Notes under the pieces: generated by a model
The model's database searches: none
What the model was told of the DNA's origin: nothing
Seen by the model: only the letters and a program-made list of their open reading frames with translations
Translations under genes and position numbers: made by a program
Assembly: GCA_963795085.1 (NCBI GenBank)
Contig: CAWCFX010000006.1
Location: 480,001-544,000 of the forward strand
Length of the DNA stretch: 64,000 nucleotides
Source: an uncultured Gemmatimonadales bacterium
GTDB lineage: Bacteria > Gemmatimonadota > Gemmatimonadetes > Gemmatimonadales > GWC2-71-9
Direction: 5' to 3'
Part shown: one piece after another, positions 1-62,395 of the stretch
Numbering within the stretch: the first letter of the stretch is position 1
Layout: each line of letters opens with the position of its first letter

Positions 1-1190
1 TGCCGGGGCACCGGGTTCCATAACAGCAGCGACGGGCGGACTCCGGCGGGGTGGTCGCGTGCCCGGTCCGGGTCCGTCACGAAGGCTCCCTGGATGGCCA
101 GACCGGTCACTTCCCGGGCGATACTCTCGACCTCGGTGAGTCGTACGTCCTGTTCCCGCGATACATCGTCACTGGCGCAGCCGCCCAGCGCGTCGTGGAA
201 GTGGCACTGCACCAGCCGCCGGCTGGCCCACTCCAGCAATGGCCGGAGATCGCGCCCTCCGGCCCGCATACTGAGCGCCGCCAGCGGCTCGGCGTACCGC
301 TCCAGCCAGAGCTCAGCCCGGCTGTTCCGCCGTTTCTGATGCGACCGGGTGCCATGCACACCCTGGAGCGCCCAGGTGTAACCATGCTCCCGGAGTTCGC
401 CCTCGCGCACCGGCATCTCGATCCCCCGCGCCGCATGGAGAAAATCTCCCAGCCGGGAGAGCCGTACCTCGGACTCCGGCTCCAGCGCGGCGAGTGCGTC
501 GCGCAGACGGACCAGGTCGGTCCTCGCGGCATGATGATCGGCGCCAATAAACACCGCCACGTGGGATGAGGCCGCGCGCCGGACCAGCGCGCGGCGAACC
601 GGCTCCCAGGCCTCCCGCGCCCGGGCGGAGTCGCTGGCCAGCGCGGACCCGACCTCGTACCCGTCCGGCGGCAGGTGATAGGCGAGAACTTCGGCGCCCC
701 CGGTCCCCCGCCAGCGGAACAGGTCGCGCTCACTCTGCACCCCTCGCCAGAGCACCGCCGAGCCAATGCCGAACTCGGCGGCAAGGGCGGGCAGGACCGC
801 GGGATGGCCGAATGCGTCGGGGGAATAGAGAACCGGGAGGCCCCGGCTGAAGCCCGCGGTGTCCTTCCGGCCGAGCAGAAGGTTCCGCACCAGCGACTCG
901 CCCGAGGGAATCTGTTCGTCGGCCAGCACGTACCAGGGGCCGGTCTCGATCCGGCCCTGCGATACCAGCCGCCCGACCCGCGGGCGTTGCGCGGGGCGGA
1001 CGGCGAGGTAGTCCTCCAGCAGGACAGTCTGCCCGTCGAGGAGAAAACCCGGGATCGCGGGTTCCCGCTCCAGCTGGTCAATGAGATCGTCGAGTACCGG
1101 TACCAGCCGGGCTCCGAAGCGGCCGCGGGGCAGGTACCACTCGCGATCCCAGTGGGTATGGGGAATCAGGTGAAAGGTGTAGCGAGGCAT
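1..1190 (-). CDS. Glycoside hydrolase family 38 alpha-mannosidase (MngB-like), 3' end truncated by window edge
   Basis: Absent from the ORF track, apparently because it has no stop before the window edge. Manual translation from ATG 1190 gives MPRYTFHLIPHTHWDREWYLP...FLLDGQTVLLEDYL...GPWYVLADE...SGESLVRNL...PDAFGH, which are GH38 N-terminal motifs. Confidence 0.9.
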   Translation of the reverse strand, partial: MPRYTFHLIPHTHWDREWYLPRGRFGARLVPVLDDLIDQLEREPAIPGFLLDGQTVLLEDYLAVRPAQRPRVGRLVSQGRIETGPWYVLADEQIPSGESLVRNLLLGRKDTAGFSRGLPVLYSPDAFGHPAVLPALAAEFGIGSAVLWRGVQSERDLFRWRGTGGAEVLAYHLPPDGYEVGSALASDSARAREAWEPVRRALVRRAASSHVAVFIGADHHAARTDLVRLRDALAALEPESEVRLSRLGDFLHAARGIEMPVREGELREHGYTWALQGVHGTRSHQKRRNSRAELWLERYAEPLAALSMRAGGRDLRPLLEWASRRLVQCHFHDALGGCASDDVSREQDVRLTEVESIAREVTGLAIQGAFVTDPDRARDHPAGVRPSLLLWNPVPR

Positions 1191-35746: not shown

Positions 35747-35762
35747 CTGTTACCGCCGGGAC

Positions 35763-36725: not shown

Positions 36726-36731
36726 TATCTC

Positions 36732-38929: not shown

Positions 38930-38933
38930 GCCA

Positions 38934-45657: not shown

Positions 45658-47478
45658 ATGACCGGATCCAAACCCCTCGTGGACGGGCCTCTACAGGTCC
45701 TTCGCCTGGCAGCCTGGTTCGGCCTGTTGACCGGCCTCGGCGAAGTGGCCCTGCTTGCCATCCGGAAGTACCTGCTGCACCGGTTCCTCTTTGCCAGCAT
45801 GGACTCCATCTGGATGGCCCCGCTGGCGGACACCCTGCTTTTCCTGGGAGCGGGCGGGCTGCTGCTCCTGGTGCGGGCGGTGCTGCCCCGGCGCCTGACG
45901 CCGTCCCCGGTGCTGGTCTTCACGGCACTCTCCGCGTTCACCATTCTCCTCATGTACGGGCCGCTTTCGCGCTGGGCCCTCATGATCCTGGCCCTGGGGC
46001 TGGGTGTGCAAGCCTCGCGCGTGGCCCGGCGGCACCCCGAGGGCTTCGGCCGGCTGGTCCGCCGTACTCTTCCCGCGTTTCTGATCCTGGTGGTCCTCGC
46101 CGGCGCCGGGCTCCGGATCTGGATGGCGACCGGCCAGCGGCGTTCGCTGGGCGGCTCTACCGCCCGGACCGGCGCGCCCAACGTCCTGCTCATCGTTCTG
46201 GACACCATCCGGTCCTGGAACCTGGGCGTCTATGGGTATTCGCGAAACACCACGCCTGAGTTGGTGAGCTGGTTCGGGGACGGGGTCCGTTTCGACCATG
46301 CTCTCTCCTCCACTTCGTGGACCCTGCCTTCTCACGCGACGATGTTCACCGGCCGCTGGCCGCACGAGCTCTCCGCCGACTGGTTGACGCCCCTGGACCG
46401 CCGGCACCCCACGCTGGCCGAGGTGCTCGGCTCCCAGGGCTATTCCTCGGCGGGATTCGTGGCGAACACCACGTACGCCAGCTATGAGAGCGGGCTGGGC
46501 CGGGGATTCGGGCATTATCGCGACTACCCGGTGACGTCCGCCCAGGTCGTGCTCAGCTCGGGTCTGGGGCGCTACCTCGCCGGCAGCCGGTTCGTCCGCC
46601 GGAAGTTGCTGCGGGTGAGCGCGGAGGATATCAACCGGAAGGTCCTGGGCTGGCTGGACGATCGGGACCAGGACCGGCCCTTCTTCGTCTTCCTGAATTA
46701 CATGGATGCCCACGGCCCGTACCAGCCTCCCGAGCCCTACGACACGCTGTTCTCGGCGCCGGGATCGTCGGCCTACATCGAGCACCTGCGAGAGGACACG
46801 CCGGCCCGGGAGTGGACCCCGGCGGCCCGGCAGGCGGCTCTCGACAAGTACGACGAATCCATCGCCTATCTCGATGCCCAACTGGGCCGGCTCTTCAGCG
46901 AACTCAAGAGCCGGAATCTCTGGGACAACACCCTGGTCATTGTCACCTCGGACCATGGCGAGGAGTTCGGGGAGCGGGGGATTTTCTACCATGGCAACAG
47001 CCTCTACCGTGCATCGGTGGAAGTTCCCCTGCTGCTGCGACTGCCGGGCCGGGTGCCGCCGGGCGCCACGGTTCCCGCGGCGGTGTCGCTCCGGGACCTG
47101 GCGGCGACCATCCTGGATCTTTCCGGTGCCACCGGCCGGGAACGGCTCCCCGGAAAGAGCCTGGCCCGCTTCTGGGACGGCGGCAGCTCCAGGCCGGACA
47201 CTGTCCTCATGGAACTGAGCTACCTGGCCCGGCTGCCCAAGGGTACACCCATCGCCCGGGGCCCGATGAAGTCCCTCATGGTGGATCACATGCGACTGAT
47301 CAGTAACGGGGACGGCCAGGAAGAGTTGTACGATTTCCTGGCCGATTCAACCGATAGCGTGAACCTCGCGGCCCGACCGGACCAGCAGGGTGTGCTGGCG
47401 GACCTTCGCGCGGCGCTCCAGGCCATGTTCCCCCGCCGGCGGCCCCGGCTGGCCGACACGACCGCGGGCGCCCGATGA
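45658..47478 (+). CDS. Multi-TM alkaline-phosphatase-superfamily 'sulfatase-like' protein, Thr nucleophile (paralog 1)
   Basis: About 5 TMs, then [32 protein letters not shown] and YHG. Confidence 0.9.
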   Translation: MTGSKPLVDGPLQVLRLAAWFGLLTGLGEVALLAIRKYLLHRFLFASMDSIWMAPLADTLLFLGAGGLLLLVRAVLPRRLTPSPVLVFTALSAFTILLMYGPLSRWALMILALGLGVQASRVARRHPEGFGRLVRRTLPAFLILVVLAGAGLRIWMATGQRRSLGGSTARTGAPNVLLIVLDTIRSWNLGVYGYSRNTTPELVSWFGDGVRFDHALSSTSWTLPSHATMFTGRWPHELSADWLTPLDRRHPTLAEVLGSQGYSSAGFVANTTYASYESGLGRGFGHYRDYPVTSAQVVLSSGLGRYLAGSRFVRRKLLRVSAEDINRKVLGWLDDRDQDRPFFVFLNYMDAHGPYQPPEPYDTLFSAPGSSAYIEHLREDTPAREWTPAARQAALDKYDESIAYLDAQLGRLFSELKSRNLWDNTLVIVTSDHGEEFGERGIFYHGNSLYRASVEVPLLLRLPGRVPPGATVPAAVSLRDLAATILDLSGATGRERLPGKSLARFWDGGSSRPDTVLMELSYLARLPKGTPIARGPMKSLMVDHMRLISNGDGQEELYDFLADSTDSVNLAARPDQQGVLADLRAALQAMFPRRRPRLADTTAGAR

Positions 47479-49262
47479 CGATCATCCTGCTCGCGCTGGG
47501 AATCGGCGTGGCCACCGGCCTCGGCGAGGTCGTGCTGTTCTGGGCCCAGACCCATCTTCTCCAGCGGTTCATCTTCGTCGGCCGGGACATCACCTGGATG
47601 GCGCCGCTGGCGGAAGCAATCATCTTCCTGGGCCTGGGCCTGGTGCTGGCGCTGATCCAGCGCCTCTGGCGGGGGTTCACGCTCACGATGGCCCTGGGCG
47701 CCCTCGCCACGCTGTCGTTCCTGGCTCTCCTGATGATGTATACCCCGCTGCACAAGGGAGCCGCGCTGGTCATGGCGCTGGGACTCGGTGTGCACACGTG
47801 GCGGATCGGCCGGAAGCACGAAGCCGGGGTGCGCCGGATGGCCGCCAGGGGAACCCCGCTCATGCTGGCCATGGCCCTGATACTGGGCGCCGGCAGCCAA
47901 GGCGTCCGGGCCTGGCAGGAACACCGGGCAGTGGCGGGCCGAGGGCCGGCGGCGGCCGATGCGCCCAACGTCCTGTTCATCATCCTGGACACCGTCCGCG
48001 CGATGAGCCTCTCGGTCTACGGTTATGAGCGGCCCACCACGCCCAACCTGGAAGCATTCGCCCGTGCCGGGGTGCGATTCGACTATGCCTTCAGCAACGC
48101 GCCGTGGACCTTGCCCTCGCACGCCAGCTTCTTCACGGGCCGGCTGCCTATCCAGCTCTCCGCCGGATGGCTGAACCCGCTCGACGACCGCGACCCGACC
48201 ATCGCGGAAGCCCTGGCCGCCCGGGGATACCGTACCGCCGGCTTCGTCGCCAACACCCTCTACGGCGACACCGAAAAAGGTCTCGACCGCGGCTTCCACC
48301 ACTGGGAGGATTTCCCCGTCACCTTAGGGGAGGTGTTCCGCAGCTCGGTCCTGGTCCGCGACCTTGCCACCCGGCGGGCCGTCCGGGAACCGCTTCACAC
48401 CTTCGAGCTGCTGGGACGGAAGAAGGCCGGGGAGGTTACCGGCGGCTTCCTGGACTGGCTCGCCGGCACCGAGGGCGATCCGTTCTTCGCGTTCCTCAAC
48501 TACTTCGACGCCCACGCGCCGTACCTGCCGTCGGCGGATTTCGAGCGGCGCTTTCGGACGCCCGGCCTGGTGCACCCCTACGGGGAATGGGCGCGGCTTC
48601 GCGGAAGGCCCCAGGGGGACTCGCTGATTCCGGCGTGGGTGCAGGACAACCAGGATCGGTATGACGCGGCCATCGCCGAGGTGGATGCCGAGCTGGGCCG
48701 GCTCTTTGCGGAGCTCGAACGGCGGGGGATTCTCGACCGTACGATCGTCATCGTGAGCTCGGACCACGGGGAACAGTTCGGTGAGCACGCGGTCATGGGC
48801 CATGGCAACAGTCTCTACCTGCCGGTCCTGCATGTGCCCCTGCTGATTCGCTACCCGCGCCGGGTGCCGGGCGGGAGCACGGTCTCCCGGCCGGTCTCGC
48901 TCCGCGACATCCCGGCGACCATCACCGACCTGGCCGGCGCGAGCGGCGCCCGATTTCCGGGGCGGAGCCTGGCCCGGTTCTGGGACGGGTCGGACCAGGC
49001 CTCCGCGCCTGACACCCTGTTGATGGCCGTGGAGTACAACCCGCGGCTCCCGAAGGGCAACCCGATCGACCAGGGCTCGATGCGAGCCATCATTCTCGAC
49101 AGCCTCCACTACATCAGGAATGGAGACCGGCGGGAAGAGCTCTACCGGTTCCGGACCGACCCGGCACAGGTCACCGACCTGGCGGGCCGGGCCGCCGAGG
49201 AGGGCGCACTGGCCCGGCTCCGGGGAGCGCTCACCACCCTGGATCCGGAGACGAAGCCGTGA
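47475..49262 (+). CDS. Multi-TM sulfatase-like protein, Thr nucleophile (paralog 2)
   Basis: ATGA overlap. Motifs NVLFIILDT, WTLPSH, NYFDAHAPY and SDHGEQFG. Confidence 0.9.
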   Translation: MTIILLALGIGVATGLGEVVLFWAQTHLLQRFIFVGRDITWMAPLAEAIIFLGLGLVLALIQRLWRGFTLTMALGALATLSFLALLMMYTPLHKGAALVMALGLGVHTWRIGRKHEAGVRRMAARGTPLMLAMALILGAGSQGVRAWQEHRAVAGRGPAAADAPNVLFIILDTVRAMSLSVYGYERPTTPNLEAFARAGVRFDYAFSNAPWTLPSHASFFTGRLPIQLSAGWLNPLDDRDPTIAEALAARGYRTAGFVANTLYGDTEKGLDRGFHHWEDFPVTLGEVFRSSVLVRDLATRRAVREPLHTFELLGRKKAGEVTGGFLDWLAGTEGDPFFAFLNYFDAHAPYLPSADFERRFRTPGLVHPYGEWARLRGRPQGDSLIPAWVQDNQDRYDAAIAEVDAELGRLFAELERRGILDRTIVIVSSDHGEQFGEHAVMGHGNSLYLPVLHVPLLIRYPRRVPGGSTVSRPVSLRDIPATITDLAGASGARFPGRSLARFWDGSDQASAPDTLLMAVEYNPRLPKGNPIDQGSMRAIILDSLHYIRNGDRREELYRFRTDPAQVTDLAGRAAEEGALARLRGALTTLDPETKP

Positions 49263-51085
49263 CCAGCGGCGCCTCCCGGTCTTCAGTCTCGAGCGGCATG
49301 GTCATCGGGCTGGGGCTCTGGTTCGGGCTGGTCACCGGCCTGATGGAGGCGCTGGTGCTGGGCGTCCGCTCCTACCTGCTGGGACAGCTGGTCCACGTGA
49401 GCTGGCATTTCCCCTGGATGGCGCCCCTGGCCAACGCGGGGTTCTTCCTGTTTCCGGCCCTCGTCCTCGCGCTGGCGGCGGCGGTTGCGCCGAGGCTGGT
49501 GACCTTCCGGCTGGCCGTCTTTGTCTTCCTGGCCATGGGCGCCGCGGCGCTCCTGCTGATGTACCCCAGGATTCTTCCCTGGGCGTCGGCCCTGCTGGCG
49601 GGGGGGCTTGGGTTCCAGTTCTCCCGGACTATCGCCCGCCACCGGGTTGGCATGGAGCGGCTGGTCCGCCGTTCGCTGCTGCCGTTGCTGGGCGTGGTCG
49701 CGATGGCCGCGGCCTCCATGGCCGGATACGGCAAGTTCCGCGAACCCTACCTGCTCTCCCAGTTGCCGGCGGCGGCGAAAGGGGCTCCCAACCTCCTGCT
49801 GATCATTCTCGACACGGTGCGGGCCGCGAACCTGAGCCTCTACGGCTACCAGCGGGAGACCACGCCCAACCTGTCCCGGCTGGCGGCCCGGGGTACCCGG
49901 TTCGACCAGGCGATGTCCCCCGCGCCGTGGACCCTGCCCTCGCACGCCAGCATCCTCACCGGCCGCTGGCCGCACGAGTTGTCGGCCGACTGGGTGGTGC
50001 CGCTCGACGCAACCTACCCGACCCTGGCGGAACACCTGGCGTCCCGCGGGTACGCCACCGGCGGATTCGTCGCCAACGTGGGTTACGGCAGCTGGGAATT
50101 TGGCCTGGACCGCGGATTCAGCCGCTACGTGGACTTTCCGCTTACCCTCGCCACGATCACCGCCAGTTCCTCCATCGGCCGGCAGCTGGACCGGAACCTC
50201 CGGGTCCGGAACCTTCTCCGCACCGATCAGCACCTGGTCCGGGTGAACGCGCCCCACGTCAGCGGGGATTTTCTGGAGTGGATCGACGGACGGGGCAGCC
50301 GGCCCTTCTTCGCGATGCTCAACTTCTATGACGCCCATGGCCCGTACCTGCCGCCGGCGCCGTTCGACCGGAAATTCGACTCCGCGGGGCGCCAGGCCAA
50401 CCTGAGTCCCCTGCACCGCTACCTGGCCCGGCCCCGCCGGACGCCGCTGCCGCCCGAGGTCGTGGCCGCCGAGATCGCGCAATATGACGGGGCCATCGCG
50501 TACCTGGACCAGGAACTGGGAACCCTGTTCGCCGCGCTGGACGCGCGCGGCCTGATGCAGAACACGATCATCGTGGTTACCGCGGACCACGGCGAAGAGT
50601 TCGGAGAGCACGGCATCTATGATCACGGCAACACCCTGTACCGACCCTCGGTGCATGTCCCCCTGGTCCTGGTGGCACCGGGTCAGTCGCCCGGCGTGGT
50701 GACGTCGCCGGTCAGCCTGCGGGACATTCCCCACACGCTGGCCCGACTGGCCACCGGCTCGGGGATGCCCTTTCCCGGACGTCCGCTGAACCAGGCCGCG
50801 GGCGACTCCGTCTCTCCCCCCGTGCTCGCCGAGGTGCGGCAGGGACTCCGGACCCCCGCATGGCACCCGGTGACGCTGGGAGACATGCACTCCGTGATCC
50901 GGGACAGCCTCCGCCTGATCCGCAACGGCGACGGCAGCGAGGAGATCTACCGGGTGTACCGGGACGGATGGGAAACCAGCAATCTCGCCGCCGACTCGGC
51001 GACGCTGGCCGCCGGCCTCCGGGGGCTGTTGCCGCCGATCCGCGGCGATGCCGGCACCGCGATTCAAACAAGGAGAACGCCGTGA
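49259..51085 (+). CDS. Multi-TM sulfatase-like protein, Thr nucleophile (paralog 3)
   Basis: GTGA overlap. Motifs NLLLIILDT, WTLPSH, NFYDAHGPY and ADHGEEFG. Confidence 0.9.
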   Translation: MTSGASRSSVSSGMVIGLGLWFGLVTGLMEALVLGVRSYLLGQLVHVSWHFPWMAPLANAGFFLFPALVLALAAAVAPRLVTFRLAVFVFLAMGAAALLLMYPRILPWASALLAGGLGFQFSRTIARHRVGMERLVRRSLLPLLGVVAMAAASMAGYGKFREPYLLSQLPAAAKGAPNLLLIILDTVRAANLSLYGYQRETTPNLSRLAARGTRFDQAMSPAPWTLPSHASILTGRWPHELSADWVVPLDATYPTLAEHLASRGYATGGFVANVGYGSWEFGLDRGFSRYVDFPLTLATITASSSIGRQLDRNLRVRNLLRTDQHLVRVNAPHVSGDFLEWIDGRGSRPFFAMLNFYDAHGPYLPPAPFDRKFDSAGRQANLSPLHRYLARPRRTPLPPEVVAAEIAQYDGAIAYLDQELGTLFAALDARGLMQNTIIVVTADHGEEFGEHGIYDHGNTLYRPSVHVPLVLVAPGQSPGVVTSPVSLRDIPHTLARLATGSGMPFPGRPLNQAAGDSVSPPVLAEVRQGLRTPAWHPVTLGDMHSVIRDSLRLIRNGDGSEEIYRVYRDGWETSNLAADSATLAAGLRGLLPPIRGDAGTAIQTRRTP

Positions 51086-52728
51086 TCCGCTGGCTTCGGG
51101 AGACCGATCGAACCGCCTGGCTGCTCTTCGGGCTGGCGGTCCTGCTGTACGCGCCCGGGCTGGTGTGGGGGCTGCCCTACGCCACCAGCGAGGTCACCAT
51201 CCGGGGCTGGGATGTGGACAGCATCGCCGGCATCGGCCCGCTCTCGGAACTGCACAACCTGCTGGTGGAGCCTCGCGAAGGGTGGTATTTCGCCTATCCC
51301 CTGTTTCACTACCTCGTCCTGGGAGCGGTGTACGCTCCCTATATGGCGTTTCTCTGGCTGACCGGCGGCCTGGCTGCCCCCTCGGCAGGGTACCCCTACG
51401 GATTTGCGGACCCGGTGCAGGCCCTGGCGACCCTGGCCTTCCTGGGACGGGCGGTCAGCGTGCTGATGGGCGCCGGCACCGTCCTGGGCGTGTATCTCGC
51501 CGCTCGTACGATCTGGGACCGGCGCACCGGCATCATCGCGGCGGTCACCATGATGCTGTGCGGCCCCCTTGTCTACTACGCCCATGCCGGGAACCTCGAC
51601 GTGCCGGTCCTCTTCTGGCTATCGATGTGCGTGTACGCCGGCGCGCGAATCCTGCGGCACGGGTTGACGGTCCGCCGCGCGATGGGCTTCGGCATCCTGG
51701 CGGCGATCGCGGTCGCCACCAAGGACCAGGCCTATGGCCCCCTGGTGCCCGCCGTGCTGATCCTCATTGTGGCGCACCTGGTGGCGACGCCCGCGGGCGC
51801 CGCACGATGGCGGGCGCCGATGGCGCTGGTGCTGGCTGGACTGGTGGCCTACGCGGTGGCTAACGGAATCGTGTTCCGCCCGTCCCGGTTCATCAACCAC
51901 GTCAAGTTCCTGCTCAACTTCGAGCAGACCTTCGTCAACGTGGTGCATCTCGACGTCGTCCGGGAAAATTCGGCCCGCGGCTATCTCCTCGTCCTGTGGG
52001 ACGTGACCAAGGCGATCTACGAATCGCTGGGCCCCATCATGCTGGCCGCGGCGCTGGCCGGGATCGTGGCAACCTGGCGCGCCGGACGGGACGCCGTCAA
52101 CCGCACGTTTACCTGGCTGCTGCTGGGGATGCTGGGCGGCTACCTGTTCCTCGTGCTGGCACCGATCCGCCACATGCAGTACCGCTGGGCCATGGTGCCC
52201 GCCCTGCTGCTGGTGTTCTTTGCGGCCCGGCTCATCGCGCTGGGACTGGCGGCCGGAGGCGCCCGGCGCAGCGTGGCGTTCGGCGCCGCCGTGCTGGGCA
52301 CCGGCTGGCTCGCCGCGTGGGCCGTGGATCTCCGCTACCAGGTCTGGAATGATGCCCGGTTCGGCGCCAGCGAATGGCTCGACGCCAACGCCCGGCCGGG
52401 CGACAAGGTGGCCTTCTTCGGATCGGTGGGGCAGCTTCCCCGAATTCCCCGGAATGTGGAGCCGATCTCGATGCCGACCGATTCGACCGCCTCCGCCGCC
52501 CTGGCGGACAGTGGCGTCCGGCTGGTGCTGGTGATTCCGGATTACTCCAGCCGGGGCATGCTGGACCGAAGCCAGTACCTGCCGCTGGCCACCTACCGGC
52601 AACTGCAGGATGGCAGCCTCGGCTTCACCCGGTCGGCGCACTTCAGGACCAAACCGCTGCTGGGCCGCGAACTGTACAACCTGCCGATCGTGAACCCGCA
52701 GGTGCAGATCTTCGAGCGGACCCGGTGA
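51082..52728 (+). CDS. GT-C fold glycosyltransferase (GT39/PMT_2/ArnT-like)
   Basis: AAGGAG RBS and GTG 51082, more than 10 TMs, an acidic first external loop (WDVDS), YPLF, ATK, RW and a C-terminal soluble domain. Confidence 0.8.
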   Translation: MIRWLRETDRTAWLLFGLAVLLYAPGLVWGLPYATSEVTIRGWDVDSIAGIGPLSELHNLLVEPREGWYFAYPLFHYLVLGAVYAPYMAFLWLTGGLAAPSAGYPYGFADPVQALATLAFLGRAVSVLMGAGTVLGVYLAARTIWDRRTGIIAAVTMMLCGPLVYYAHAGNLDVPVLFWLSMCVYAGARILRHGLTVRRAMGFGILAAIAVATKDQAYGPLVPAVLILIVAHLVATPAGAARWRAPMALVLAGLVAYAVANGIVFRPSRFINHVKFLLNFEQTFVNVVHLDVVRENSARGYLLVLWDVTKAIYESLGPIMLAAALAGIVATWRAGRDAVNRTFTWLLLGMLGGYLFLVLAPIRHMQYRWAMVPALLLVFFAARLIALGLAAGGARRSVAFGAAVLGTGWLAAWAVDLRYQVWNDARFGASEWLDANARPGDKVAFFGSVGQLPRIPRNVEPISMPTDSTASAALADSGVRLVLVIPDYSSRGMLDRSQYLPLATYRQLQDGSLGFTRSAHFRTKPLLGRELYNLPIVNPQVQIFERTR

Positions 52729-54494
52729 AATCACTCCTCCGGCTGGCCGCCTGGTTTGCGCTGGCCGCGGGCCTCGTCGAAGCCGCACTCCTGGTGGCGC
52801 ACGGGCGACAGATTCACGGCTTCATCTACCTGAGCCCTCACCTGGTGTGGATGGCGCCGGCGATGAACCTGGTCTGGTTCGGGATGGCCGCGCTGCTGCT
52901 GGGAGGCCTGGGCCGGATCCGCCCCTCCTGGAGCTCGCCGCGCGCGGCGATCTTTGCATTCACGTTTCTGGCCGCCCTCGCGATCCTGCTCCTCCCGTCG
53001 CAGCTGCATCGCCTCGCCGCGGTGGTGATCGCGCTGGGCCTCGCGGCCCAGGCGACCCGGATGCTCACCCCGCGGCTGGACTGGTTCGCCCGCCTCACCG
53101 CCCGCACGCTTCCGCTGATGGCCGCGCTCGTCGTGCTGGCGCTGGCGGGCACGGCCGGCTGGAGCGCGTGGCGGGAGCGCCGGGCCGTCGGGGCCCTGGG
53201 TCCCGCTCCTCCGGGAGCGCCCAACATCCTGCTCATCGTGCTGGACACTGTACGCCGCGCCAGCCTGAGCCTCTACGGCTACGAGCGGCCTACCTGGCCG
53301 CACATGGAGCGGTGGGCCGCGCGGGGGGTGCGATTCGACCACGCGTTCGCCACGGCCTCGTGGACGCTGCCCTCCCACGCCAGCATGTTCAACGGCCGGC
53401 TGCCTGGCGACATGAGCGCGGGATGGTTGGCCCCGCTCGACGATGCCCACCCGGTGCTGGCGGAGCGGCTGCAGGCCGCGGGTTATGGCACGGCGGGCTT
53501 CGTCGCCAATGTCCTGTACGGCAACCGCAGTTTCGGGCTGGGCCGGGGATTCCTGCGGTACGAGGACTATCGCATCTCGCCCGGTGAAATGCTGGTCAAC
53601 TCTTCCCTGGGCCGGGCGCTCTCGGAGTGCCGGCTGCTGCGCCGGCTGACCGGATGGTACGATATCGCGGGCCGCAAAAGCGGCCGGCAGGTTACCAACC
53701 GGTTCCTGGCCTGGCAGGCGCGGCAGCGGGACCGCCCCTGGTTCGCGTTCCTGAACTATTTCGATGCCCACCAGCCCTACCTGCCCCCGGCCGAACTCGC
53801 CGGCGCGTTTGGGCCGGTGGATGACCGGAACTTCGGCCTGCTGGAGCTTCGCCCCTACATGGGCAAGCTCGAAGCTGCCGAAACGGCGCTGACGCCGGCG
53901 CAGGTGGAGTCGGAACGGAACGCCTATGAGGCCACGCTGGCCTACCTGGACCGGGAGATGGACCGGCTGCTCGGCGAACTGGAACGGCGGGGCGACCTGG
54001 AAAACACGATTGTCGTGATTACGTCCGACCATGGCGAACAGTTCATGGAGCACGGGCTGTTCGACCATGGCAACAGCCTCTACCGGTACGCAACCGAGGT
54101 GCCGCTGGTGATGATCGGCGGACCGGCGGCGCCGGGAGGGGTGGTGACGGAGCCGGTGTCGCTTCAGCACCTCCCGGTCACCCTCCTCGGCCTGGCCGGG
54201 GTGGACCGGACCGGTTTCCCCGGCACCAGCCTCCTGGGCCAGGACCGTAATGGGGCGCCCCCGCCGCCGGTTATTTCGGAGACCCGAGGCCCGGGTCTCG
54301 ACCGGCGATTCCACGCGGTGGTGGCCCAGGGGTATCATGCCGTATGGAGCGCCGATTCCGTGGAGTTGTTTGACTTCGGCGAGGATCCCGGGGAACAGAT
54401 CAACCTGGCCCGGAGCCCGGCTGGCGCCGCCACCCTGATCCGGCTCAGAAGTTTTCTGGACTCGGCCATCGCGGGACGGCGAGGAAACCCGTAA
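52725..54494 (+). CDS. Multi-TM sulfatase-like protein, Thr nucleophile (paralog 4)
   Basis: GTG 52725 overlapping the upstream stop. Motifs [24 protein letters not shown] and SDHGEQF. Confidence 0.9.
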   Translation: MKSLLRLAAWFALAAGLVEAALLVAHGRQIHGFIYLSPHLVWMAPAMNLVWFGMAALLLGGLGRIRPSWSSPRAAIFAFTFLAALAILLLPSQLHRLAAVVIALGLAAQATRMLTPRLDWFARLTARTLPLMAALVVLALAGTAGWSAWRERRAVGALGPAPPGAPNILLIVLDTVRRASLSLYGYERPTWPHMERWAARGVRFDHAFATASWTLPSHASMFNGRLPGDMSAGWLAPLDDAHPVLAERLQAAGYGTAGFVANVLYGNRSFGLGRGFLRYEDYRISPGEMLVNSSLGRALSECRLLRRLTGWYDIAGRKSGRQVTNRFLAWQARQRDRPWFAFLNYFDAHQPYLPPAELAGAFGPVDDRNFGLLELRPYMGKLEAAETALTPAQVESERNAYEATLAYLDREMDRLLGELERRGDLENTIVVITSDHGEQFMEHGLFDHGNSLYRYATEVPLVMIGGPAAPGGVVTEPVSLQHLPVTLLGLAGVDRTGFPGTSLLGQDRNGAPPPPVISETRGPGLDRRFHAVVAQGYHAVWSADSVELFDFGEDPGEQINLARSPAGAATLIRLRSFLDSAIAGRRGNP

Positions 54495-54569
54495 TTCGAT
54501 GTGGCAATTGGCGTTGGCCCGATTCTCGCCATACCGGTCTGGCTCCCCCGGCTGGCCGGCCGGAGGCCC

Positions 54570-54597
54570 TTGAAACCGCTGTTGACGCGCCTAAACT
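54570..54597 (+). promoter_or_regulatory. Candidate internal sigma-70 promoter for paralogs 5-6 and cysN/cysQC/cysD
   Basis: TTGAAA-16 bp-TAAACT in the only non-overlapping gap of the array. Confidence 0.5.
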
Positions 54598-54623
54598 GAT
54601 CCACTGCCCCGGAGGTCTGCCGC

Positions 54624-56474
54624 ATGGCGGCCACAGGACAACAGAACCAGTCTCGATTGCCCCACCTGCTGCTGCTCACCCTGTGGCTGGCCCTCGTATC
54701 GGGGCTGGCGGAGGGAGGGTTCCGGCTATTCCAGAAATTCGTCCAGGGCAAGCTGATTCTGATGAGCCCCCATGTCATCTGGATGGCCCCCGTGGCCGAC
54801 CTGGTCTGGATCGGGATGCCGGCCCTGCTGCTACTGCTGGCACGCCGGGTCTGGCCCGGCCGGGTGAGCGCAGGCTTGGTGCTCGGCGTGCTTTCCGCGG
54901 CCGCGCTCCTGCCCCTGGTCCTGCTGTACACTTCCATGCACAAGGCGGTGGCGGTGTTCCTGGCCGCGGCCCTGGGCTTTCAGGCGGCCCGGCTGCTGGC
55001 GCCACGGCTTGAGGGGCTGAGCCGGGTGGTCCGCCGCACCGTCGTCCCGCTGGCCCTGCTTGCGGCCGTGGGCGGTGTGACCATCGCCGGAATCCGGACC
55101 TATCGGGAACGGCAGACCCTGGCCCAGGCCCCCGCGCCGCGCGATGGAGTCCCCAATGTCCTGCTCATCATCTGGGACACCGTGCGGGGCCAGAGCCTGA
55201 GCGTCTACGGCTACGATCGCCCCACCACGCCCTATCTCGAGCAGTTTGCCCGCGAGGGCGTCCGCTTTGACCTCGCGATGAGCACCGCGCCGTGGACCCT
55301 GCCCGCTCACGGCAGCATGTTCACCGGGCACCGGCCGCGCGACATCATGAACAGCATCTTCCGGCCGCTGGTGGACAGCTTCCCAATCCTGGCCCAGGTC
55401 CTGACCGACCAGGGCTATGCGACGGGAGGCTTCGTGGCGAACATGGCATACACCTCCCGGGAACACGGGCTGGGCCGGGGCTTCGCGCGCTACGAGGACT
55501 ACACCATCAGCTGGGGCAACGTGCTGCTCTCGTCCCGGCTCGGTTTCGTCCTGGCGGACCAGGCCTGGATCCGGCCGCTGGTCGGCAGCTGGAACCAGCC
55601 GGCCCGCAAGGACGCGGCGCTCATCAACCAACAGTTTCTGGGGTGGGCTGAAGGCCAGGACCGGCCCTTCTTCGCGTTTCTCAATTACTTCGATGCCCAC
55701 CGGCCCTACGTCTCGGTGGAGCCGTACCGGTCGCGCTTTGTACGGGACAGTTCGGGCCGCTACCACCCCTGGCTGGAGCATGTGGAGTTCAAGGACCTCA
55801 CCGAAGCGGAGATCCGCTGGGCCAACGACGAATACGACGCCACCATCGCGTACCAGGACGAGCAGGTTCGCCTTCTGATGGAGGAGTTACAACGGCGGGG
55901 GCAATTGGAGAACACCCTGGTGATCATCAGCTCGGACCATGGCGAACACTTCGGTGACCATCGGCGGATGGGGCACATGAACTCCCTCTACCGTTCCCTG
56001 ATCCAGGTGCCTCTGCTGATCCGCTATCCCGCCGGCATTCCGGGTGGTACGGTCGTGCGCCCCCCGGTAAGCCTGCGCGATATCCCGCAGACGGTGCTCG
56101 ACCTGGCCGGGCTGGCCGGCCGGGACCGGTTCCCCGGGGCGACCCTGGCCCGGTTTTGGGACCCGGCCAAGGCCGACCCCAACCGGGCTGAAGAACCGGT
56201 GCTTTCGGAGATCGCGACCCGGAAGAACCGGGGTCCGTATTCGCTGATGCAGGGAGATTATCATTACATCGCGTGGCAGGGGCAGGACAAGCCGGAGGAG
56301 CTGTATCACCTCGCGAATGACCCCTTCGAGGAAGGCACCGTCGCAGCCCAGCCGGAACTGGCGGACATAATCCGGAGCTTCCACGATTGGAGTTACCGGC
56401 TGATGGGCAACCAGGTCTTCGAGAAGCGGAATGCCCCGGCAGCCGAGGCCGACGAAGGGCCGTTGCCCCAGTGA
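54624..56474 (+). CDS. Multi-TM sulfatase-like protein, Thr nucleophile (paralog 5)
   Basis: GGAGG RBS. Motifs NVLLIIWDT, WTLPAH, NYFDAHRPY and SDHGEHFG. Confidence 0.9.
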   Translation: MAATGQQNQSRLPHLLLLTLWLALVSGLAEGGFRLFQKFVQGKLILMSPHVIWMAPVADLVWIGMPALLLLLARRVWPGRVSAGLVLGVLSAAALLPLVLLYTSMHKAVAVFLAAALGFQAARLLAPRLEGLSRVVRRTVVPLALLAAVGGVTIAGIRTYRERQTLAQAPAPRDGVPNVLLIIWDTVRGQSLSVYGYDRPTTPYLEQFAREGVRFDLAMSTAPWTLPAHGSMFTGHRPRDIMNSIFRPLVDSFPILAQVLTDQGYATGGFVANMAYTSREHGLGRGFARYEDYTISWGNVLLSSRLGFVLADQAWIRPLVGSWNQPARKDAALINQQFLGWAEGQDRPFFAFLNYFDAHRPYVSVEPYRSRFVRDSSGRYHPWLEHVEFKDLTEAEIRWANDEYDATIAYQDEQVRLLMEELQRRGQLENTLVIISSDHGEHFGDHRRMGHMNSLYRSLIQVPLLIRYPAGIPGGTVVRPPVSLRDIPQTVLDLAGLAGRDRFPGATLARFWDPAKADPNRAEEPVLSEIATRKNRGPYSLMQGDYHYIAWQGQDKPEELYHLANDPFEEGTVAAQPELADIIRSFHDWSYRLMGNQVFEKRNAPAAEADEGPLPQ

Positions 56475-58264
56475 ACGGCCAGCCCTCGCGCGGGGCAGCC
56501 CCGCCGATCCCCATTCTGTTCCTGGCTCTCTGGCTGGCACTTGCCGCCGGGGTGGCGGAGGGACTGGTCCGGCTGACCCAGAGCCTGGCGTTCGGAAAGG
56601 TGATCGGAGTCAGCCCGCATATCATCTGGACCGCTCCCCTGGCGAACCTGGCATGGATCGGAGTTCCGGCGCTGCTCCTGGCGGGCATGGGCAGGCTCCT
56701 GCGCTGGCCAGGGCGCCAGAGAATCACGGCGTTTGTGCTGGTGGGCCTGGCCGTCAGCAGCCTGGCTCTGCTCTACCCTTCCATGCACAAGGCCGTCACG
56801 CTGTTCCTGTCCGCGGCGATCGGGTGGAAGCTCTCCGGGTGGATGCTGGGATCCCCGCGGTTCTCCCGGCTGGCCCACCGGAGCGTGCCGATGCTGGTCG
56901 GTGCCGCGGTGCTCGGCGGGCTGCTGATCGCCGGATCCCGCCGGCTCCACGAGCGGCGACTCCTCACGGCGGCGCCGGCGGCCGGCCTGCCGAACGTGCT
57001 GCTGATCGTCCTCGACACGGTGCGAGATGAAAACATGAGTGTTTCGGGATACGGCGTCTCGACCACGCCGTTCCTGGAGCGATTCGCCGCGGAGGGGACC
57101 CGTTTCGAACGCGCCATGTCGACCGCCCCGTGGACCCTGCCGGCCCACGCGTCCATGTTCACCGGGCGATTGCCCGCCCAGCTGAAGGCCGCCTGGCGGA
57201 CGCCGTTGCAGCCCCGTTTCGCCGTGGTGGCCGAGAGCTTCGGCCAGGCCGGGTACCGGACCGGCGGGTTCACCGCCAACATGGCCTATACCACCCGGGA
57301 ACACGGCCTGGCCCGGGGTTTCGGACGCTACGAGGACTATGACCTGTCCCCGGTCGGGATCCTGGCCAGTTCCCGGATGGGGCGGCTGATTACCTATCTC
57401 AAGCCGGTACGGCGGGCGCTCGGATTCTGGGATATCCCCGGACGAAAAACGGCAGAGGACGTCAACCGCGATTTCACGGACTGGATGGAGGACGGCGGGG
57501 CGCGTCCGTTCTTCGCGTTTCTCAACTATTTCGACGCGCACCAGCCCTACCTGCCGGAGGAGCCGTATCGGAGCAAGTTCGTGAAGCCGACCGGCCGGCC
57601 CTACGAGCCGACCCCGGAGGGGGCGCCCTTCGACCAGATGACCGCGCCGGAGATCCAGACCGAGCTGGAGCACTACAACGCCGGCATCGCGCAGGAGGAC
57701 GCCGCGCTGGCGGCGCTCATGGAAGATCTCCGGCGGCGCGGCCTCCTCGACCGAACCCTGGTGATCATTACGTCCGATCACGGTGAACAGTTCGGCGAGC
57801 ACCGCAAGATGGCCCATGGCAACAGCCTGTACCGGCAGGTCCTGGAAGTTCCGCTCCTGATGCGGCTGCCCGGGGCGGTGCCCGCCGAACTGGTGGTTGA
57901 AGAACCCGTGAGCATCGCCGATCTGGCCCGAACCATGCTCGGCCTGGCCGGACAGGCCGATACGGCCCGTTACCCCGGTGCGTCGCTCGCCAGATTCTGG
58001 GAGGCTGGTCAGGGTGCGGTGCCGGAGGCGCCGGTCGTGAGCATCATGTACGGCCCGGGTGGTTCCGCCTGGTCGTTCATCGACGGTGAGTATCACTACT
58101 TGCACTGGTTCCGCGAGGACCCGGAACTGTACGCGCTGGACGACGAGCAGGAAACCCGGAACCTGGCCAGCGCGCCGGGCATGCAGGCCCAGCTGGATCA
58201 CTTTGCCAACCTGCGGGCGTCCTATGCCCGCCAACTGTCCGACCAGGGGAGATCATCGCAGTGA
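56471..58264 (+). CDS. Multi-TM sulfatase-like protein, Thr nucleophile (paralog 6)
   Basis: GTG 56471 overlap. Motifs [24 protein letters not shown] and SDHGEQFG. Confidence 0.9.
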
Positions 58265-60119
58265 CACAGGCCAAGACCGGAACGCCCACCGCCCCAGAGC
58301 CGGCCGCGCGGACTTCGTCCGAACCGGAGACGACGTCCAAGCAGCAGATGAACATCGTGATCGGCGGCCACGTGGACCATGGCAAGAGCACGATCATCGG
58401 CCGCCTGATGGCGGATACCCACTCCCTGCCCGACGGCAAGCTGGAGCAGGTCAAGGCGCTCTGCGAACGGACGGCGAAGCCGTTCGAGTATGCCTTCCTT
58501 CTCGACGCCCTGAAGGACGAGCAGGCCCAGGGCATCACCATCGATTCGGCCCGGGTGTTCTTCAAGACCGCCCAGCGGGACTACATCATCATCGATGCTC
58601 CCGGACATATCGAGTTCCTCAAGAACATGGTGACCGGCGCCAGCCGGGCCGAGGCCGCCCTGCTGGTGATCGACGCCAAGGAAGGGGTCCAGGAGAACAG
58701 CCGCCGCCACGGGTACATGATGTCCATGCTGGGCATCCGGCAGATCGCGGTGCTGGTCAACAAGATGGACCTGGTGAACTACGACCGGGCCGTGTTCGAC
58801 CAGATCGTGCGGGAGTACACCGCGTTCCTCACCAACCTCAAGGTCACTCCGGCCGCGTTCATCCCGGTAGCGGGACGGGATGGCGAGAACATCGCCACCC
58901 AGTCGGCCCGGATGCCCTGGTACACCGGCCACACGGTGCTCGGCATGCTGGACGCCTTCGAGAAGGAGCCAGCGCCGGTGGCGGCCCCGTTCCGGATGCC
59001 GGTGCAGGACATCTACAAGTTCACCAAGCAGGGCGACGACCGGCGCATCGTGGCCGGCACCATCGATACCGGCACCATTCACGTCGGCGATGAGGTGGTC
59101 TTCTATCCTTCCGGCAAGAAGAGCCGGATCAAGTCCATTGAAGGGTTCAACCGGCCGCCGCAGGCCCGGGCCGAAGCAGGCCAGGCGGCCGGATTTACGC
59201 TGCAGGAACAGATCTATGTCGCCCGGGGCGAGATGGCCACGCTGGCGACCGAGCCGAGGCCCAAGGTGACGACCCGGCTCAAGGTGAATCTGTTCTGGCT
59301 GGGCAAGAACTCCCTGGTCACCAAGAAGGACTACCTTCTCAAGCTGGGCACCACCCGGGTGCCCATGCGGCTGGAGGAGGTCCACCGGGTCATCGATGCA
59401 TCCGACCTCTCCACCAAGGACTCCAAGCAGCGGATCGACCGGAACGACGTGGCGGAGTGCACCATCAAGCTCAACCGGGCCATCGCCTTCGACCTGGCCG
59501 ATGAGATCGCGGCCACCAGCCGGTTCGTGGTCATTGACGATTACGAGATCCGGGGCGGCGGCATCATCCGCGAGGCGCTGCCGGACCGGCAGACCTGGGT
59601 GCGGGACAAGGTCCTGCTCCGGAACTACAAGTGGGAATCCAGCATCATTCCGCCCGAGCGGCGGGCCGAGAAGCTCAACCAGCGCTCGGTCCTGCTGCTG
59701 ATCACCGGGGAGCAGGAGGCCGACCGGAAGAGCCTCGCCAAGGGCCTCGAGTCCCGCCTCTTTGAGGACGGCAAGGTGGTGTACTACCTCGGCATCGGCA
59801 ACGTGCTCTACGGCGTGGACGCCGACATCGAACGGAAGGACGAGAACCGGCAGGAGCACATGCGCCGGATGGCGGAGGTCGCGAACCTGATGCTCGATGC
59901 CGGCGTGATCCTGATCGTCACCGCGGCGGAACTGACCCAGGACGATCTCGAACTGATCAAGGCCACGGTGGAGCACGACAAGATCGAAACCATCTGGGTG
60001 GGCGACCAGGTCACCACCGATATCGCCTGCGACCTGGTGCTGACCGACCCGGAGCAGGAAGTCGAACGGGTGGACCGTATCAAGAGCCTGCTGCAGGACA
60101 AGGGCGTGATCTACCGGCC

Positions 60120-60126
<7 letters not shown>
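58261..60126 (+). CDS. cysN: Sulfate adenylyltransferase GTPase subunit with degenerate C-terminal APS-kinase domain
   Basis: [24 protein letters not shown] and FRMPVQ. The C-terminal CysC-like domain has [11 protein letters not shown] at the P-loop position. Confidence 0.92.
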
Positions 60127-61445
<1,319 letters not shown>

Positions 61446-61513
61446 ACCCATCGCCCGACCGGCGAGTATCGCTGCCCGTTTGGCGGCTGAACCACTAAAT
61501 CAGAGGCGGAACG

Positions 61514-62395
61514 ATGGACCACCTGGAACAGCTGGAAAACAAGAGCGTACACATCCTCCGCGAAGCGTACGCCAACTTCAAGCAACTCGGCATGCTCTGG
61601 TCCATCGGAAAGGACAGCACGGTCCTGCTCTGGCTGGCCCGGAAAGCCTTTTACGGCCACGTGCCGTTTCCGCTCATCCACATCGACACTTCGTACAAGA
61701 TCCCGGAGATGATCCACTACCGGGACCAGCTGGTCGCCGAGTGGAACCTGAACCTGATCTATGGCGAGAACCGGGGAGCGCTGGATGCGAAGCGGACCTT
61801 TCCCGACGGTGCGGTGGACCGGATCACCTGCTGCGGGCTGCTCAAGACCGAGGCACTCAAGCACACCCTCTCCGGCGAATGGCCCCGGTACCGGTTCAAT
61901 CATGCGAAGAAGGAGTACGAGCGCGACACCAACACGGAGCCCTTCACCGGCGTCATTGTCGGCGCCCGGGCGGACGAGGAAGGCAGCCGGTCCAAGGAGC
62001 GCTACTTCTCCCCCCGCAACACCAACAACCTCTGGGACGTGGGCGACCAGCCGCCGGAGTTCTGGAACCAGTACAAGACCGATTTTGCGCCGGGAACCCA
62101 CCTCCGGATCCACCCGCTGCTGGACTGGACCGAGCTGAACATCTGGGAGTACATCGAGCGGGAGAACATCCCGACCGTGTCGCTCTACTACGACAAGGGT
62201 GAAGGCAAGCGGTACCGGTCGCTGGGCTGCGGGCCCTGCACCAACGTGGTCGAGTCAGGTGCCCTGAACGTCGCCGATATCATCGTGGAACTGAAGACCG
62301 GCAAGTTCGCCAACATCGCGGAACGGTCGGGGCGCGCCCAGGACAAGGATGACGGCGGCGGGTTGGAAACGCTCAGGAAAGACGGGTATATGTGA
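61514..62395 (+). CDS. cysD: Sulfate adenylyltransferase catalytic subunit
   Basis: [38 protein letters not shown] and C-terminal KDGYM. Confidence 0.95.

Follow-up and report, generated by a model that had tools for sequence, protein, structure and literature searches.

Two kinds of described systems come closest to the locus reported here. NodPQ-NodH and RaxPQ-RaxST are loci in which genes for the synthesis of 3'-phosphoadenosine-5'-phosphosulfate (PAPS) stand together with a sulfotransferase gene, and the synechan xss cluster is reportedly of the same composition. To our knowledge, all established glycan sulfation is carried out by soluble or Golgi-type P-loop sulfotransferases which bind PAPS directly, and we know of no bacterial route by which a polymer would be sulfated outside the cytoplasm. 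The other kind comprises membrane-anchored enzymes of the alkaline phosphatase superfamily with a catalytic threonine, such as EptA, MCR-1, LtaS and LtaP; in Firmicutes, a set consisting of such an enzyme with a GT2, a flippase-like protein and a GT-C (YfhO/CsbB type) serves lipoteichoic acid synthesis plus glycosylation. We describe here a locus of an uncultured Gemmatimonadales bacterium (genome G000; 3.89 Mb, 93% complete, about 67% GC) in which both kinds of elements meet: six paralogs of a membrane protein family, for which we use the working name FAM, and a GT-C glycosyltransferase lead directly into genes of PAPS synthesis. The analysed stretch of 64,000 nucleotides, G000 C6:480001-544000, is called the window, and G, L and P labels denote genomes, loci and database proteins of the comparison. 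We assign a probability of roughly 45% to the reading that the FAM proteins transfer groups in the periplasm and belong to a non-canonical sulfation/decoration pathway that is based on lipid carriers.

The array occupies window positions 45658-62395 and consists of ten co-directional genes:
45658-47478, + strand: FAM-A, 606 amino acids (aa), Thr222 in WTLPSH (PF00884, E 1.5e-51; AF2 predicted local distance difference test, pLDDT, 93.7)
47475-49262, + strand: FAM-B, 595 aa, WTLPSH (PF00884, E 2e-44; 48% identity to FAM-A)
49259-51085, + strand: FAM-C, 608 aa, WTLPSH (PF00884, E 1.1e-48)
51082-52728, + strand: GT-C glycosyltransferase, PMT_2 (PF13231, 30.7 bits against a cut-off of 26.1; open reading frame, ORF, 50860-52728)
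52725-54494, + strand: FAM-D, WTLPSH (PF00884, E 4.1e-42; GTG start inferred from paralog alignment and junction)
54624-56474, + strand: FAM-E, 616 aa, WTLPAH (PF00884, E 2.9e-42)
56471-58264, + strand: FAM-F, WTLPAH (PF00884, E 8.8e-43)
58261-60126, + strand: CysN, GTPase subunit of sulfate adenylyltransferase (TIGR02034, 352 bits against a cut-off of 336)
60120-61445, + strand: fusion of CysQ (3'-phosphoadenosine-5'-phosphate, PAP, phosphatase) and CysC (adenosine-5'-phosphosulfate, APS, kinase) (TIGR01331, 271 bits against 229; PF01583, E 7.4e-52)
61514-62395, + strand: CysD, small subunit of sulfate adenylyltransferase (NF003587, 341 bits against a cut-off of 195)

Four-nucleotide overlaps are found at six junctions, reading ATGA at A/B and GTGA at B/C, on both sides of the GT-C gene (C/GT-C and GT-C/D), at E/F and at F/cysN, while cysN and cysQ-cysC meet in ATGGTAA. 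The only spaced junctions are D-E, with 129 nt, and cysQC-cysD, with 68 nt. The six paralogs are 39-48% identical to FAM-A, well above chance, and all of them (6/6) carry W-T-L-P-[S/A]-H, with Ser in FAM-A to D and Ala in E and F. The original prediction, made from the letters of this DNA, had described six such paralogs, each with about five transmembrane (TM) helices and an alkaline-phosphatase-superfamily domain, together with the GT-C gene, the cys genes and an exosortase/Wzc neighbourhood, and every element of this anatomy holds. Its remark that no formylglycine-generating enzyme (FGE), reductase or sulfotransferase is encoded in the window was borne out as well, as a scan of 53 window ORFs revealed none of these domains.

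The active site was examined in alignment A2, comprising 98 full-length homologs (from 73 loci, several phyla) and the six paralogs, 104 sequences in all. D182, T222, H226, N270, H352, D432, H433 and H445 are invariant in 104/104. When phmmer was run against PDB sequences, S1 sulfatases and phosphonate monoester hydrolases (PMH) were on top, with 4uph at 1.2e-25; T222 aligned to residue 84 of 6pt6 (a C84S mutant), i.e. to the formylglycine position, H226 took the place of the Arg in C-x-P-x-R, and H445 that of a Lys in 4uph. Of the positions that bind metal in S1 sulfatases (two adjacent Asp plus Asp-Asn/His), D182 and D432-H433 are invariant, and the second Asp is replaced by Thr183 in 95% of A2. 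According to a passage in PMC5066984, the S1 sulfatase signature PS00523 reads [CS]-x-[PA]-x-R, its Cys or Ser being converted to formylglycine, and a second S1 signature, G-[YV]-x-[ST]-x(2)-[IVAS]-G-K-x(0,1)-[FYWMK]-[HL], contains the sulfate-binding Lys/His. FAM has neither. Instead of the former, the six paralogs show T-L-P-[S/A]-H (6/6), with the Thr and the His invariant in 104/104; instead of the latter, the family has G261-Y262-x-T264-x-G266-F267-V-A-N270, without Lys or His. The same passage states that formation of formylglycine from Thr was never demonstrated and that Thr proteins are not to be counted as sulfatases. The identity of FAM as a formylglycine sulfatase is thus ruled out by both failed signatures and by the Thr/His alignment, in agreement with the original prediction, which had rejected it since such sulfatases require C/S-x-P-x-R. 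Judging from these motifs, FAM is mis-annotated as sulfatase and cannot make formylglycine.

Curated NCBIfam models all scored far under their cut-offs for the six paralogs:
Arylsulfatase PRK13759 model: 98-131 bits, cut-off 481
Choline sulfatase model: 97-119 bits, cut-off 433
EptA model: up to 53 bits, cut-off 561
MCR models: at most 42 bits, cut-offs 1100-1250
YejM model NF038282: 31-44 bits, cut-off 825
LtaS model NF053595: 17-23 bits, cut-off 970

The sulfotransferase domains PF00685 and PF13469 had no match in the six paralogs at E<=0.01, the fold being that of the alkaline phosphatase superfamily, and SGSH_C Pfam matches indicate a C-terminal subdomain of sulfatase type. The family is large: at least 596 copies confirmed by tblastn are found in species-representative genomes, where the database label is only 'sulfatase', and the ESM Atlas offers nothing beyond automatically assigned labels of the type 'sulfatase family protein'. 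No paper on this family, or on periplasmic or lipid-linked sulfation, was found in full-text literature outside the subscription journals. FAM is an uncharacterised family of inner-membrane, predicted periplasm-facing enzymes of the alkaline phosphatase superfamily, whose catalysis is predicted from the conserved residues. A further protein of G000 resembles it in part: a sulfatase-like protein of 465 aa that has no TM helix (C1:578217-579503, - strand), with GTPTLPACTS at the nucleophile position and 28% identity to FAM-A, is apparently a second Thr-type relative, predicted to be cytoplasmic.

An AlphaFold model of FAM-A built on A2 (pLDDT 93.7, predicted template modelling score 0.93) predicts five N-terminal helices (residues 11-39, 50-75, 84-98, 105-125 and 127-165) followed by an alpha/beta domain. 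The top Foldseek match of this model was 4uph, at 4.6e-23. In an exhaustive VIA search S1 sulfatases and PMH again ranked first, with Z 41-30 (the best, 4upl, with Z 41.2 and root-mean-square deviation 3.9 over 400 residues), followed by full-length PbgA (Z 32.1, aligned over 9..591), LtaP (4uop, 31.3), EptA (29.5, 45..507), LtaS (2w5q, 28.5), MCR-1 (28) and the nucleotide pyrophosphatases/phosphodiesterases (NPPs, about 25). VIA, Foldseek and SGSH_C thus agree on an alkaline-phosphatase-type core with the C-terminal subdomain of the S1 group, and the layout of EptA and MCR is equally recognisable in the five TM helices, the predicted periplasmic domain of alkaline phosphatase type, the Thr nucleophile and the D-H pair. 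As S1 sulfatases and PMH rank first while the alignment to PbgA and EptA runs over the full length, FAM is, on the model, a hybrid, in which the anchor and nucleophile logic of LtaS, EptA and PbgA is set on a scaffold nearest to true sulfatases. The original prediction had assigned the paralogs to the LtaS/EptA type. This stands for architecture and residues; it does not stand for closest descent, because the catalytic domain is nearer to S1 sulfatases and PMH in both sequence and structure comparison.

Side by side with the S1 sulfatases and PMH (4uph, 4upl, 6pt6, choline sulfatase), which are its best sequence and fold matches, FAM has in common with them the D-H pair and the first of the metal Asp residues, as well as an SGSH_C-like subdomain and, in the 'H-x-P' strand, the His. 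It differs from them in having Thr for Cys/Ser, His for the Arg of C-x-P-x-R, His at the 4uph Lys, Thr at the second metal Asp, no G-K-x-H signature and a 5-TM N-terminal domain, and in a genomic context that is biosynthetic, unlike the catabolic context of S1 sulfatases. With EptA and MCR-1 (5fgn, 5gov, 9nww) it shares the 5-TM anchor, the periplasmic alkaline-phosphatase-superfamily domain, Thr, DHGE and the flanking His. Unlike theirs, the FAM catalytic domain is about 130 residues longer and bears the sulfatase-type C-terminal subdomain, its first metal ligand is Asp (that of EptA is Glu), and its genes form six tandem paralogs linked to PAPS genes. LtaS/LtaP with glycosylation of the YfhO/CsbB type offer the same picture of a membrane-anchored Thr enzyme beside a GT2, a flippase-like protein and a GT-C, and natural YfhO~FAM fusions exist; unlike in the LtaS case, the FAM host is of Gram-negative type and there is no sign of a glycerophosphate polymer. 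PbgA/YejM/LapC, finally, align with FAM over residues 9..591, and FAM differs from them in keeping the complete set of catalytic residues.

The side of the membrane on which FAM acts can be predicted from the charge of its loops. Across A2, loops 2-3 and 4-5 contain on average 2.7 and 3.75 Lys plus Arg residues, and loop 3-4 only 0.6; this positive-inside pattern places the N-terminus inside and therefore the catalytic domain outside. The extracytoplasmic location claimed earlier is thereby supported, as a prediction, by the loop pattern and by the alignment with full-length PbgA and EptA. Because W52 (99%), G114 (96%) and P55 (90%) are conserved across A2, together with A107 (89%), G26 (87%) and E29 (78%), the TM domain seems to be more than an anchor.

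Neighbouring and fused genes point in the same direction. GT-C genes lie within or beside FAM arrays, with orthologs of the window GT-C at the same place in L011, L012 and L054, and in the natural fusions P0001 and P0006-P0008 PMT_2 and/or YfhO is joined to a FAM domain; these four GT-C~FAM fusions retain W-[TS]-L-P-x-H and DHGE. Near FAM one also repeatedly finds a GT2 of about 330 aa and flippase-like proteins; GT2, flippase and GT-C together form the standard periplasmic glycosylation triad acting on polyprenyl-phosphate sugars. From the fusions and from these neighbours it follows that FAM would act extracytoplasmically, on the same kind of substrate.

The linkage between FAM and PAPS synthesis was studied in 151 genomes sampled evenly across the phylum, with FAM called at E<=1e-60 and at most 8 candidates per genome scored. 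FAM is present in 26/151 genomes, typically in 5-9 copies. APS kinase occurs in 64/151, namely in 22/26 FAM-positive as against 42/125 FAM-negative genomes. In all 12 genomes with FAM and APS kinase on one contig (12/12) the two lie 0.5-36.6 kb apart, and in 11/12 they are less than 9 kb apart; in the remaining 10 genomes with both, the genes are on separate contigs, where distance is uninformative. The nearest FAM is at the following distance from APS kinase:
G034 0.5 kb; G026 1.3 kb; G101 1.7 kb; G103 2.5 kb; G000 2.7 kb; G113 2.7 kb
G145 2.8 kb; G108 3.2 kb; G028 5.1 kb; G099 8.0 kb; G050 8.3 kb; G127 36.6 kb

FAM directly adjoins cysN or cysD in G000, G001, G026, G101 (where it stands between the two) and G113; in G108 and G034 FAM and the sulfurylase gene are transcribed divergently. 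In 4/12 genomes (G034, G099, G103, G145) the CysD type is missing, and Sat-CysC, a PHP-domain protein and a Na/sulfate symporter are found instead; the best NCBIfam match of the PHP protein is NF041577, a 3',5'-nucleoside bisphosphate phosphatase. Sat-CysC stands beside FAM in these four genomes and in L015, L037 and L078. That the link outlasts the swap of sulfurylase and PAP phosphatase by unrelated analogues is the strongest argument for its being functional. The order exosortase ... HAD, FAM array, GT-C, FAM is fully kept in L011 and L012, and in the genome of L012 the array continues into cysN-cysQC-cysD, as in the window. Among 151 genomes of Acidobacteriota, close full-length FAM copies were found only in G157, 3.9 kb from Sat-CysC. 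Unpublished genomes contribute to this comparison, namely G062 (one of the six sister-genus genomes discussed below), G102 and G209 (APS-kinase tallies) and G156 (genome of L031). We also observed an APS kinase with an N-terminal DUF2061 membrane domain in G108 (L104:8186-9046), as well as in G026, G028 and G099, so that in these relatives PAPS may, by domain content, be made at the membrane.

G000 contains nine FAM copies, six of them within the window, and a single copy each of cysN, cysQC and cysD. The only match to PF01507 in this genome is CysD itself, and NIR_SIR had no match, an absence left unproven by a genome 93% complete; PAPS of G000 is, for these two reasons, probably not made for assimilation. 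No CysH and no sulfite reductase was found in any of the 6 genomes checked (G000, G026, G028, G101, G113, G108), the five relatives being 97-99% complete. Scavenging of sulfate for assimilation is ruled out on the same ground. By gene content the cys genes are a dedicated, sulfation-only PAPS supply; the earlier claim of PAPS genes devoted to sulfation is supported, as these genes are single-copy and no CysH or NIR_SIR was found. G000 also encodes two ordinary sulfatases (CTPTR and CCPAR) and two FGE-like genes, and the latter serve these canonical sulfatases, not FAM. Within CysN, the C-terminal region (window 59680-60126, residues ~476-621) is APS-kinase-like, with a partial PF01583 match over residues 476-580 (E 7.7e-13). 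As a recognisable P-loop is missing at the expected position, this domain is probably non-catalytic and perhaps PAPS-sensing; the true APS kinase is the CysQ-fused CysC downstream of cysN.

Which protein would use this PAPS? Both types of cluster encode a PAP phosphatase, which implies consumption in the cytoplasm. No match to PF13469 or PF00685 was obtained in G026 (99% complete, 10 contigs) or G108 (99% complete, one contig), and a Pfam scan of 35 further ORFs of the G026 and G108 clusters revealed no hidden sulfotransferase. Three other sulfotransferase families, PF03567, PF17784 and PF09037, gave no match in 6 genomes either, yet the controls were equally silent, which makes this result uninformative. 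Like the Nod, Rax and xss loci, the window combines dedicated CysDN/CysC and a PAP phosphatase, without the reductive branch, with a surface-glycan locus; unlike in those loci, the operon partner is FAM and not a P-loop sulfotransferase, none being detected in G026/G108 at all. In G026 the cluster consists of nothing but NPP-like, cysN, cysQ, cysC, cysD and FAM, all in one direction, between unrelated flanking genes and with no glycosyltransferase near. The NPP-like proteins (NPP/Phosphodiest family; L102:3458-5326 in G026, L103:5746-9047 in G108) are of ~620 and ~488 aa and have Thr and DHG motifs without signal peptide or TM helix; no NCBIfam model names either of the two, and NPP630-NPP488-FAM is a recurrent module. 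They stand beside FAM in 13/73 loci, and they are also found in all three Sat-CysC loci of the set and in G026, G099, G103, G108 and G145. From this placement they are candidates for non-canonical PAPS-using enzymes. In the fusion P0003 a cytoplasmic NPP-like domain of the 488-aa type is followed by TM helices and then by FAM; as this is a single sequence, a lost stop codon is possible.

FAM and canonical sulfotransferases seem to replace each other near cysD. In a sister genus without FAM, a sulfotransferase lies 0.6-2.7 kb from cysD in six genomes (G018, G036, G062, G124, G130, G150) and at 14 kb in a seventh (G024), and in the 7 genomes with FAM less than 9 kb from cysD there is no sulfotransferase within 10 kb of cysD. 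Likewise, an eight-gene module (LPG_synthase_TM, amine oxidase, GFO, protein c9 of no known kind, GT2, SDR, GMC, GT2) ends in FAM and GT-C in G028 and in a canonical sulfotransferase in G000. Such displacement would be expected from analogous or sequential roles, and it may reflect only two ancestral arrangements.

On the reading of FAM as periplasmic group transferases of a lipid-carrier-based pathway, a metal-activated Thr, set in a His-rich oxyanion pocket (D182, T222, H226, N270, H352, D432-H433, H445), would do the work of formylglycine, FAM and the embedded GT-C would decorate lipid-carrier-built surface glycans after export, and in this lineage FAM would be the extracytoplasmic arm of the sulfation-only PAPS pathway. 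Sulfate would be activated in the cytoplasm by CysDN/CysC. A cytoplasmic enzyme, which may be a canonical sulfotransferase in G000 and possibly the NPP-like protein in relatives, would then spend PAPS on a membrane-bound intermediate, with CysQ removing PAP. Once the intermediate is flipped, FAM would pass on either sulfate or a phospho-head-group that bears it, by way of a covalent bond to the Thr, and each paralog would serve a different acceptor position. FAM would thus transfer, and not hydrolyse, an anionic group from a membrane donor with PAPS-derived sulfate. We infer the lipid donor, the transferred group, ping-pong catalysis and the paralog-specific targets, and that FAM transfers sulfate we infer purely. 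Direct sulfuryl transfer through a sulfo-Thr is, as a separate part of this scheme, unlikely. A bolder version, to which we would give just as little credit, makes FAM the core of the first bacterial extracytoplasmic glycan-sulfation system, in which an enzyme of the alkaline phosphatase superfamily loads a carrier, the carrier is flipped, a sulfo-Thr relay follows and the six paralogs form a position code; in some lineages the relay would run through the cytoplasmic NPP-like proteins which adjoin FAM and are once fused to it.

Several facts weigh against this reading of FAM as sulfation-linked transferases. G000 has at least eight canonical sulfotransferase loci, four of them on the contig of the window, 19-90 kb downstream, in glycan gene clusters, one being beside a Wzx flippase; the one nearest to cysD (C6:561286-562257) is 19 kb downstream, and none is in the operon or the window. 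The original prediction had itself named a canonical sulfotransferase elsewhere in the genome as speaking against it, and such enzymes could indeed use the PAPS; they can account for all of its use, leaving FAM without contact to sulfate. PAPS and CysQ belong to the cytoplasm, whereas the predicted place of the catalytic domain is the periplasm. We know of no lipid-linked sulfate donor, and none was identified in this analysis. The sulfate-binding Arg and Lys of S1 sulfatases are missing in FAM. Its invariant Thr, D/DH and His pair look, in the alignment, like a phosphotransferase site: the arrangement of Thr, D, DH-x-E and two His (~80 before and 12 after DH) is what we take to be the pattern of phosphoethanolamine transferases. 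PAPS genes, moreover, lie within ±10 kb in only 5/73 FAM loci from several phyla (CysDN type in L031 and L054, Sat-CysC type in L015, L037 and L078), a canonical sulfotransferase being found in 6/73, and 4/26 FAM-positive Gemmatimonadota genomes are without APS kinase. In Acidobacteriota the 31 other FAM-matching genomes have weaker, catalytic-domain-only matches with no enrichment (APS kinase in 24/32 genomes with a match versus 77/119 without) and no proximity (0/5 same-contig cases nearer than 48 kb), and around most planctomycete FAM loci the neighbouring 10 kb are free of PAPS genes. The claim of a conserved PAPS linkage thus stands for this lineage, with its 12/12 same-contig cases, and is not borne out by the distant members of Acidobacteriota and Planctomycetota, most of which are unlinked; PAPS coupling is therefore a property of one subfamily or lineage. 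The counts also overstate independence, because the sampled genomes are related.

Many of these points would be natural if FAM were phospho-substituent transferases similar to LtaS, EptA and OpgB, moving phosphoglycerol, phosphoethanolamine or the like from a phospholipid or polyprenyl-phosphate onto a teichoic-acid-like or exopolysaccharide (EPS) polymer, which the GT-C would then glycosylate; the cys genes would be mere neighbours, and the same glycan would be sulfated by cytoplasmic sulfotransferases. The five TM helices, the invariant Thr, D/DH-x-E and the His pair fit such an activity, and so do the alignment of the EptA NCBIfam model to residues 85-226 of FAM-E, spanning TM3-TM5, the vicinity of GT2, flippase-like protein and GT-C genes, the fusions to GT-C, the many canonical sulfotransferases of G000, and the lack of nearby PAPS genes in most family members beyond this lineage. 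We nevertheless hold it to be possible but rather doubtful, as it leaves unexplained why FAM abuts PAPS genes (between cysN and cysD in G101, and in the G026 run without any glycosyltransferase), why the linkage is kept with either type of sulfurylase, and why G026 and G108 make PAPS with neither canonical sulfotransferase nor reductase; the NCBIfam models of EptA, LtaS and YejM also score far under their cut-offs. If one starts from the closest fold and sequence relatives, which are true sulfatases and PMH, C-terminal subdomain included, FAM might rather be membrane-anchored periplasmic esterases, that is formylglycine-free sulfatases or phosphodiesterases, which free sulfate from environmental or self-made organosulfates, so that it can be taken up and enter PAPS synthesis, or which trim the exported polymer's sulfation pattern. 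The Na/sulfate symporter adjoining FAM in Sat-type clusters, the SsuA/TauA-like ABC transporter 7.6 kb downstream of cysD, and the number of paralogs, typical of sulfatase sets that cover different sugar positions, can be reconciled with it. We regard this as quite improbable in view of the Thr nucleophile and the replaced sulfate-binding Arg/Lys (Thr proteins being outside the sulfatase count in the passage of PMC5066984 cited above), of the conserved 5-TM domain and GT-C fusions, which indicate membrane biosynthesis, of the GT-C gene within the array, and of the lack of an assimilatory pathway that would profit from freed sulfate. Hardly credible, finally, is a role without enzymatic activity, in which FAM would sense lipids or glycans or act as a scaffold in the manner of PbgA/YejM, suggested by the full-length structural alignment to PbgA with Z 32.1: the YejM model gives only 31-44 bits against 825, and a non-catalytic role is hard to reconcile with a complete set of nucleophile and metal ligands invariant in 104/104.

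The surroundings of the array are those of a surface-glycan locus. Upstream of it, the window contains:
33182-35710, + strand: Wzc-like kinase (Pfam)
38904-39827, + strand: exosortase (NCBIfam model)
39814-40458, + strand: EpsI (NCBIfam model)
33182-40458, + strand: the surface-glycan context as a whole, with Wzc-like protein, Wza-like exporter, priming sugar transferase (Bac_transf), exosortase and EpsI (Pfam, NCBIfam)
44711-45394, - strand: HAD-IIIA (YqeG/PGP-phosphatase-like) hydrolase, divergent from the array (Pfam, NCBIfam)

The glycan context 33182-40458 is syntenic with L011, L012 and L017, and a UDP-GlcNAc 2-epimerase, a GT2 and an SBBP/Big_2 protein are the other upstream genes. The Wzc gene is flanked by a histidine kinase and a sigma-54 response regulator (30206-32928, - strand), a pair which we take to be PrsK/PrsR-like and typical of PEP-CTERM loci, and by a response-regulator-GGDEF protein (35766-36917, - strand). 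The HAD-IIIA hydrolase is kept beside the array in relatives, with orthologs in L011, L012 and G101. In G101 this ortholog is paired with a UbiA-family prenyltransferase beside cysD (L107:15791-17421), a pair that presumably resembles the mycobacterial polyprenyl-phospho-sugar donor pathway.

Right after cysD lies a 228-aa ORF (window 62473-63159, - strand) without Pfam or NCBIfam match. The very large downstream glycan region in which the four same-contig sulfotransferases lie also contains Wzx, Wzy, deacetylases, an exosortase-type amidotransferase, a FemAB-like protein, two further GT-C genes and a seventh FAM copy. Just past the window, the cluster C6:545.7-563.2 kb (L090:1737-19162) contains two Trp-halogenase-like flavoenzymes, an acyl-CoA dehydrogenase, 840- and 947-aa proteins without Pfam match, an 87-aa ORF, an AMP-binding ligase, a canonical sulfotransferase and a GT2; by these domains it may be a pathway for a halogenated or sulfated lipid or glycolipid. 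Homologs of the AMP-binding ligase and of the acyl-CoA dehydrogenase also occur in the PAPS/FAM cluster of G099. The SsuA/TauA-like (NMT1 family) ABC transporter is encoded at C6:549957-552488 (L090:5957-8488) and, going by its family, may import a sulfonate or another substrate.

The analysis defines a large, unnamed enzyme family which in one lineage is wired gene-to-gene to the PAPS pathway without other visible purpose, and which occurs in two near-complete genomes (G026 and G108) with no known PAPS consumer detected. Under any reading, sulfatase counts in soil and aquatic phyla can be corrected, and a candidate is gained for a new chemistry by which exosortase-type EPS would be decorated. 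The run NPP-like - cysN - cysQ - cysC - cysD - FAM of the G026 type provides a compact six-gene test system.

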